Shown here: one piece after another, positions 28,385 through 28,732 of the stretch
Numbering within the stretch: the first letter of the stretch is position 1
Layout of the letters: every line of letters begins with the position of its first letter
Assembly (NCBI RefSeq): GCF_003334255.1
Contig: NZ_QOWU01000002.1
Direction: 5' to 3' (one strand)
DNA length: 64,000 nucleotides
From: Escherichia coli
GTDB lineage: Bacteria; Pseudomonadota; Gammaproteobacteria; Enterobacterales; Enterobacteriaceae
Position numbers and translations under genes: made by a program
The notes under the pieces: generated by a model
The model's database searches: none
What the model saw: the letters and a program-made list of their open reading frames with translations, nothing else
What the model was told of the DNA's origin: nothing

Positions 28385-28732
28385 TCACTTCTTCTTGTTC
28401 ATCATCGCTTTCAGGTCAGCGAATGGGTTGTACTTCGCTTCACCGACATCTTTCTGCGCATCTTCCCCTGCGATAACGGTCGTACCATACTGATCCGCTT
28501 CGGTATATTTCGAATGCTCATGATCGTGGCAATAGAGACACAACAATTCCCAGTTACTGCCATCTTCCGGGTTATTGGTATGGTCGTGATCAATGTGGTG
28601 AACGGTAAGTTCACGCAGGTTGGAATAAACAAACTCGCGGGAACAGCGACCGCAGACCCACGGATAGATTTTTAATGCTTTTTCGCGATAGCCGCTTTCT
28701 AACCGCGCATAGTTTTTTGGGATGATAGCCAT
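28385..28732 (-). CDS. yajD: HNH-motif putative endonuclease YajD
   Basis: 115-aa track ORF; His/Cys-rich HNH-like block HHIDHDHTNNPEDGSNWELLCLYCHDHEH. Confidence 0.93.
   Translation of the reverse strand: MAIIPKNYARLESGYREKALKIYPWVCGRCSREFVYSNLRELTVHHIDHDHTNNPEDGSNWELLCLYCHDHEHSKYTEADQYGTTVIAGEDAQKDVGEAKYNPFADLKAMMNKKK

Follow-up and report, generated by a model that had tools for sequence, protein, structure and literature searches.

YajD of Escherichia coli: a minimal stand-alone HNH protein with an intact active-site pattern and a conserved C-terminal peptide

The gene yajD lies on the minus strand of a 64,000-nucleotide stretch of Escherichia coli DNA (contig NZ_QOWU01000002.1, assembly GCF_003334255.1; hereafter the window) and encodes a 115-amino-acid (aa) protein. 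A preliminary description had presented it as a stand-alone protein with a compact His/Cys-rich, HNH-like block, and the open reading frame (ORF), the quoted block (HHIDHDHTNNPEDGSNWELLCLYCHDHEH, present exactly in the translation of 28385..28732), and the profile matches reported below all agree with that portrayal. Here we show that the HNH domain has kept every zinc-binding and catalytic residue and is followed by a variable linker and a near-invariant C-terminal peptide. The combination is best, if tentatively, explained by a minimal housekeeping nuclease that would be brought to its substrate through the terminal peptide.

The yajD locus

The window represents chromosome of the E. coli K-12 type. 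In E. coli K-12 MG1655 the annotated gene order is tsx / yajD ("HNH nuclease YajD") / secF, and a 701-bp stretch around yajD was 100% identical between the window, MG1655, and other strains. Beyond these immediate neighbors lie pgpA, thiL, nusB, ribE, ribD, nrdR, and yajI on the tsx side and secD, yajC, tgt, and queA on the secF side; secF is on the same strand as yajD and ends at position 28861. No restriction, CRISPR, toxin-antitoxin, or other defense genes are annotated within 6 kb on either side of yajD, as had been proposed from the sequence. Of 5426 complete E. coli genomes, 5425 carried one full-length copy of the coding sequence (CDS), which within the species is fixed at one site. The 701-bp stretch with its repetitive extragenic palindromic (REP) sequences gave a median of 17 match sites per E. 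coli genome, against one for the CDS alone, the REP-bearing intergenic stretch being multi-copy in every genome. The placement of yajD between REP elements and secF held up, with an exact match to the REP core GCCGGATGCGGCG at 28272 and folding of the region into hairpins (z = −3.0). The features of the locus and of the encoded protein are listed in Table 1.

Table 1. Coordinates of yajD, its protein segments, and the flanking elements in the window
Feature	Position	Strand	Remarks
yajD CDS	28385..28732	−	ORF list; 115 codons plus TGA stop
N-terminal helix, residues 1-26	28655..28732	−	Predicted helix 7-22; G-Y-R-E-x-A-L-K-x-[YF]-P-W motif leading into first CxxC
HNH beta-beta-alpha-metal core, residues 27-75	28508..28654	−	Zinc and catalytic residue sets
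Linker, residues 76-99	28436..28507	−	Acidic, poorly conserved; predicted local distance difference test (pLDDT) 55-60
C-terminal peptide K-Y-N-P-F-A-D-L-K-A-M-M-N-K-K-K, residues 100-115	28388..28435	−	
AGG Shine-Dalgarno sequence of yajD	28742-28744	−	Downstream of block GGAAACTGCGCGTAACCCTACATTT
Upstream block GGAAACTGCGCGTAACCCTACATTT, probable promoter	28750..28774	−	~25-45 nt before start codon
Terminator-like hairpin and T-run between secF and yajD	28812..28841	−	Consensus scan: 13-pair stem, then TTTGATG
Two inverted REP palindromes, bacterial interspersed mosaic element (BIME)-type pair, yajD 3′ untranslated region	28272-28302 and 28341-28369		Core match and fold
Perfect 11-bp inverted repeat between convergent tsx and yajD, candidate bidirectional terminator	28215..28241		

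Block GGAAACTGCGCGTAACCCTACATTT also stands upstream of yajD in Cedecea and at three Enterobacter loci, that of Enterobacter sp. Ag1 among them, where the neighboring genes differ. The shared segment of ~25 nt reads GGAAACTG.GC.TAACCCTACATTT (window positions 28750-28774; loci L007, L013, L014, and L016). A sigma-70 consensus scan upstream of yajD returned no site reaching threshold; by eye, the block somewhat resembles a sigma-32-type promoter (CTTGGGAAA ... CCCTACATTT). On the downstream side, Rfam gave sub-threshold matches over the REP pair (28255-28390) to naRNA4 (29 bits; gathering threshold, 59.5), itself a REP-derived RNA, and to ES036 (27 bits; gathering threshold, 37.6). Published in vitro work validated a terminator of yajD (PMC12207403), which presumably corresponds to the inverted repeat between tsx and yajD. 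Together with a NusG-suppressed pause mapped inside the gene in published work, this indicates that yajD is transcribed. If the repeat terminates both convergent genes, the yajD transcript would have a 3′ untranslated region of ~170 nt containing two REP hairpins.

An intact HNH core and a conserved C-terminal peptide

YajD matched the NCBIfam equivalog NF008448 ("YajD family HNH nuclease") over residues 2-113 of the protein (113-position profile) with 210.3 bits against a cut-off of 87. The HNH profile search suggested at the outset was equally clear, residues 27-75 aligning with all 47 positions of Pfam PF01844 (positions 1-47; E = 1.5e-12). The gene, its family, and the HNH assignment are already known in public annotation, and identifying yajD is for that reason not a discovery.

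In an alignment of 33 diverse full-length YajD members, the four zinc ligands C27, C30, C65, and C68 were invariant, and so was the catalytic set H45, H46, N60, H69, and H73 (HH..N..H..H). According to a published account (PMC3592412), a [CxxC]2 structural zinc site of this kind typifies the zinc-containing subgroup of HNH proteins. Four residues of the N-terminal segment (Y15, R16, L20, and P24) were invariant as well. An AlphaFold2 model built with 51 homologues was confident over residues 21-70 (pLDDT 91-95) and consisted of a helix (7-22), two strands (42-46 and 61-65), and a second helix (66-82), i.e., a beta-beta-alpha-metal fold, with Foldseek returning the same relatives. The HH...N...H-x3-H pattern also corresponds to H102/H103, N118, and H127/H131 of colicin E9. 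By analogy, H46, at the end of the first strand, would be the general base and N60 would brace the hairpin, while H45, H69, and H73 would hold the metal. The residue spacing (H46-14-N60-5-C65-x-x-C68-H69) is the same as that of Gme HNH, a studied enzyme from Geobacter metallireducens. Given the invariance of the zinc and catalytic residues, this spacing, and the confident fold, the HNH domain is not degenerate; loss of the catalytic His or the metal ligands, which the preliminary description had named as the outcome that would overturn its view, was not what the model and the alignment revealed. With its HNH site intact, YajD is probably an active nuclease.

No nucleic-acid-binding domain is attached to the core, whose net charge is negative (median, −3 across the family; −4 in E. 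coli). A sequence search for a solved YajD structure found none, the best hits being marginal matches to T4 endonuclease VII and to C2H2 zinc fingers. The latter involve residues 23-50 (28583-28666, minus strand; YPWVCGRCSREF....L..HH.DH), which weakly matched the C2H2 entries ZBTB17 and SALL4 (E 0.003-0.01), probably because the zinc finger and the HNH beta-beta-alpha motif have converged on a similar pattern. In "Candidatus Pantoea persica" (locus L040, 6001-6375), whose Candidatus status suggests an uncultured and perhaps host-associated bacterium, Ser takes the place of the zinc ligand C68 and the protein ends in a longer, degenerate tail (NPLADLTAMIVKRNKVSE); these changes may reflect relaxed selection.

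Between core and tail, the linker is variable in length (9-45 aa from H73 to the tail Pro across the family) and net negative (median charge, −2), and its pN (a measure of nonsynonymous difference) is twice that of the core. The C-terminal peptide that follows conforms to the family logo [AS]-T-[YH]-[NKR]-P-F-A-[DGN]-L-x-x-[LM]-[LM]-K-K-K-K-COOH and was present in 258 of the 322 sequences carrying the core motif. Within these 258, the key positions were nearly fixed (P 97%, F 100%, A 94%, L 98%) and the tail Pro stood 13 residues from the C terminus in the great majority (25th-75th percentile, 13-13); F104 and L107 were invariant in the 33-member alignment. Among 7743 ORF segments of the examined loci, a sample too small to represent a proteome, the motif occurred in YajD homologues only. 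The sequences with a core motif and no tail were for the most part metagenomic calls with a frameshift or a truncation. Also tail-less is a distinct sub-clade (P0213, P0217, P0229, P0241, P0245, P0246, and P0262; loci L088 and L089) that ends in H-S-R-G-[IL]-L-G-D-Y-L and whose core has H-G-[WL]-I-C for Y-P-W-x-C and ENLC for ELLC. Many metagenomic "YajD" entries (P0121-P0262 and others) are frameshifted or chimeric; an N-terminal half of beta/delta type, for instance, can continue at the invariant GSNWELLC..CHD into a C-terminal half of enterobacterial type. Such entries look like assembly artifacts arising at a highly conserved DNA segment.

Conserved peptides at the end of a variable tether usually mark docking motifs, and we read the tail in this way. 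The arrangement of an acidic core, a variable linker, and a near-invariant tail appears to be undescribed in the searchable papers. Two other interpretations of the peptide were discarded. Its hydrophobic moment (0.11-0.21, compared with 0.45 for MinD and 0.57 for FtsA) was not above that of shuffled sequences, which argues against a membrane-targeting helix of the MinD/FtsA type. Bacterial sliding-clamp-binding motifs follow the consensus QL[SD]LF or QLxLxL, and a clamp motif was set aside because the tail has no Gln and a different hydrophobic pattern, in a comparison limited to the sequences themselves.

Conservation, selection, and genomic context

Identity to E. coli YajD was 90-99% in Enterobacteriaceae, 83-90% in Yersinia, Pectobacterium, and Edwardsiella, 73-80% in Vibrionaceae, 63-72% in Alteromonadales, 65% in Pseudomonas, and 51-62% in sequences labelled Desulfobacterales or Deltaproteobacteria. 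The family is compact, since just 640 clusters (50% identity) reached E ≤ 0.001 among 1.84 billion representatives, and neighbors in the AlphaFold database bear the YajD name from Enterobacterales through Pseudomonas, Methylomicrobium, and Magnetococcus. Between genera, synonymous sites were saturated and nonsynonymous differences amounted to 2-9%; where the ratio of nonsynonymous to synonymous substitution rates (dN/dS) was measurable, it was 0.014 against Escherichia albertii and 0.038 against Pectobacterium. YajD is under strong purifying selection. Two sequence types occur in Enterobacterales, MAIIP../T52/ELLC and MAYIP../S52/EMLC, and their distribution is discordant with family taxonomy (L005, L017, L019, L023, L024, L026, L027, L033, and others). 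Hafnia YajD, for example, is 96% identical to the E. coli protein and that of Edwardsiella, from the same family, 84%, while Rahnella and Serratia differ in type. This discordance suggests horizontal replacement or old paralogy.

The surroundings of yajD were surveyed in 80 gammaproteobacterial loci by ORF clustering and in nine distant loci (L082-L090) with Pfam-annotated neighbors. No conserved neighbor or operon partner was found in either set, extending beyond E. coli the initial view that the gene has no partner. Of the 80 loci, only those of Escherichia, Pseudocitrobacter, and Kluyvera have secF and/or tsx next to yajD. The Citrobacter gene has a chitinase-like ORF on one side and yeaC-msrB-gapA (neighbors named from their translations) on the other, and in other genera the flanks mostly differ again; those read by eye look like ordinary chromosomal genes. 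The position of yajD varies in almost every genus, with at least ~20 contexts among ~40 Enterobacterales species (L002-L081), while the protein is still 83-99% identical. Such shifting is unusual for a core gene in a strongly syntenic group. Because the upstream block is common to copies at different loci, yajD seems to move with its promoter. This and the two discordant sequence types suggest that it travels as a small cassette that is sometimes exchanged.

Proposed role, alternatives, and relation to known systems

Our explanation of these data as a whole, offered tentatively, is that YajD would be a minimal zinc-stabilized HNH (His-Me finger) nuclease encoded by a single-copy housekeeping gene of Gammaproteobacteria and their relatives. 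In the mechanism we envisage, the C27/C30/C65/C68 zinc site would hold the fold around a complete one-metal active site. As the core is net acidic and has no nucleic-acid-binding domain, the enzyme by itself is expected to be weak and harmless, which would explain the absence of any need for an immunity or partner gene. The flexible acidic linker would tether the core to the C-terminal peptide PFAxLxx[LM][LM]KKK, and the peptide would dock onto a conserved cellular partner and so bring the nuclease to its substrate. Most plausibly, this substrate would be DNA that is branched or damaged, acted on during genome maintenance in the manner of the HNH-APIM/PCNA module of human ZRANB3 (APIM, AlkB homologue 2 PCNA-interacting motif; PCNA, proliferating cell nuclear antigen). 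A more specific version, which we consider doubtful, sees in the tail a previously unrecognized docking motif that tethers a minimal HNH nuclease to some conserved machine of proteobacteria, for example the replisome, a recombination/repair factor, RNA polymerase, or the ribosome, as a bacterial counterpart of the ZRANB3 HNH-APIM/PCNA module, with its loss buffered by redundancy.

Genetic data bear on this in both directions. Full-text searches of the searchable literature found no functional work on YajD, in line with the initial statement that its function is not established. In a Salmonella study, cbpA/yajD and ychN/yajD double mutants were sensitive to H2O2 (PMC3878590), a phenotype weakly consistent with a redundant role in genome maintenance. 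Several results weigh against a recruited nuclease. The single yajD deletion in the same Salmonella study had no growth, stress, or virulence phenotype (PMC3878590), and the searchable literature yielded no biochemical or interaction report. The gene neighborhoods of the surveyed loci gave no hint of a partner, the tail fits neither QL[SD]LF nor any docking motif that we could name, and a tail-less sub-clade exists. AlphaFold2 modeling of a tandem YajD-(G4S)6-YajD construct, a crude test, gave five inconsistent models (predicted template modeling score [pTM] 0.43, mean pLDDT 64.7) and neither a confident dimer nor docking of the tail. The top Foldseek match was DotN, a zinc protein that belongs to the type IV coupling complex of Legionella and whose entry names no nuclease role. 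Finally, the substrate may be either DNA or RNA.

The last two points each lead to an alternative. YajD might be RNA-directed, its tail tethering it to the ribosome, RNA polymerase, or the degradosome for RNA quality control. Its conservation is of the degree expected of a protein in contact with conserved RNA-protein machines, its acidic core speaks against free DNA binding, and the order of catalytic domain, flexible linker, and short basic C-terminal segment resembles the layout of ArfB and other rescue factors. The close structural relatives, however, are all DNA nucleases, no ribosomal or RNA-processing neighbor was present at any surveyed locus, and the sole phenotype is oxidative-stress sensitivity in combination with loss of the nucleoid protein CbpA, so that we regard an RNA-directed role as unlikely. 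Distinctly unlikely, too, is a non-catalytic zinc-/histidine-rich adaptor or metal-binding protein that keeps the HNH fold, as DotN appears to do. The similarity to DotN and the acidic, His-rich core would suit such a protein; invariance extends, however, beyond the zinc cysteines to all catalytic residues (the general-base His, the bracing Asn, and the three metal His), and their spacing is exactly that of active HNH enzymes.

The mobility of the gene invites another explanation, namely a free-standing HNH cassette of the homing type, selfish now or in the past, that has its own promoter and terminator and moves between intergenic sites. The many contexts, found even within Enterobacterales (at least ~20 among ~40 species), the promoter block that travels with the gene, the two types (ELLC/T52 and EMLC/S52) that cut across family taxonomy, and the fact that the nearest phage families are HNH endonucleases all point this way. 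Yet in 5425 of 5426 E. coli genomes the gene is fixed as one copy at a single site, its dN/dS is very low with the tail included, identity broadly declines with taxonomic distance, and the phage matches span just half the protein at ~50% identity. Flanks read only by eye contained no recognizable integrase or transposase, the exceptions to their ordinary content being one ParA-like and one toxin-like neighbor. On balance a selfish origin of this kind seems improbable. A defense or toxin nuclease (restriction-like, Zorya ZorE-like, or an orphan toxin) is suggested by matches to PADLOC ZorE HNH models (E = 4e-7), a weak NCBIfam IscB match, and some JGI records that call homologues "McrA," but we judge it very improbable: the ZorE matches cover the generic HNH core in the last ~60 of 282 profile positions and do not amount to full-length membership, no Zorya, methylase, immunity, or other defense genes lie nearby, YajD as such was not found in phages, and it is a core rather than an island gene. 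As to the translocon genes secDF, beside which the preliminary description had placed yajD, the adjacency is real in E. coli, where yajD adjoins secF on the same strand, and might hint at a function with the SecDF-YajC translocon. It is, however, specific to the three genera named above among the 80 loci, and a terminator-like hairpin separates the two genes; the adjacency is for these reasons without functional weight and a SecDF-linked role was rejected. With a nuclease fold that has no evident secretion role, such a function is scarcely credible.

If recruitment through the tail is the correct explanation, it might reveal a new way in which a nuclease reaches its substrate, and knowing the role of YajD would close a gap in the inventory of the best-studied bacterium. 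The tail motif, and within it F104 and L107, provides a direct experimental handle on that role.

Among known proteins, YajD belongs by full-length match to the family annotated as NF008448 or, in UniProt, "Putative HNH nuclease YajD," a name that rests on annotation only. T4 endonuclease VII, its best PDB sequence match among nucleases (E 0.008), shares with YajD a four-Cys zinc site as well as an H-x-D-H-D-H stretch; YajD has neither a profile match to the endonuclease VII family (Pfam PF02945) nor the architecture of a dimeric junction resolvase. HlpB/YisB of Bacillus subtilis is likewise a small, conserved, chromosomal stand-alone HNH-like protein and is tied genetically to DNA repair through AddAB. 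YajD scored 13.4 bits against the HlpB model (NCBIfam NF058586; cut-off, 130) and is thus not a member of that family, and the gene contexts differ, yisB being a neighbor of addAB/sbcCD and yajD having no conserved neighbors.

The protein closest in format is Gme HNH (Gmet_0936, PDB 4H9D), which like YajD is ~100 aa long, stands alone, has a [CxxC]2 zinc site, and carries neither a DNA-binding domain nor a partner gene. Its residues D53/H54, N68, C73, C76, and N77 show a spacing identical to that of YajD (PMC3765158). The two proteins share 18-19% identity, Gme HNH was not found by sequence search, and its D-H and N stand in place of the H-H and H of YajD; the metal ligand of Gme HNH is the residue right after the second CxxC, a His in many HNH enzymes (PMC3765158). 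Gme HNH acts as a weak, Mn-dependent nickase with a preference for damaged DNA, and the authors of the study expected it to require a partner (PMC3765158). Their paper describes no conserved C-terminal peptide, unlike the tail of YajD.

A short terminal peptide does occur in the best structural match, the HNH domain of human ZRANB3 (PDB 5MKW). There the APIM, at the very C terminus after the HNH domain, binds PCNA, recruits the enzyme, and stimulates cleavage (PMC5481773). ZRANB3 is a 1079-aa ATP-dependent translocase while YajD consists of the module alone, and the YajD tail is neither an APIM nor a PCNA-interacting protein (PIP) box, bacteria using a different clamp motif. The likeness is one of architecture, with no claim to homology of the tails. 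Conjointly, the ZRANB3 HNH-APIM module, Gme HNH, and HlpB/YisB provide three precedents that support a recruitment architecture for YajD.
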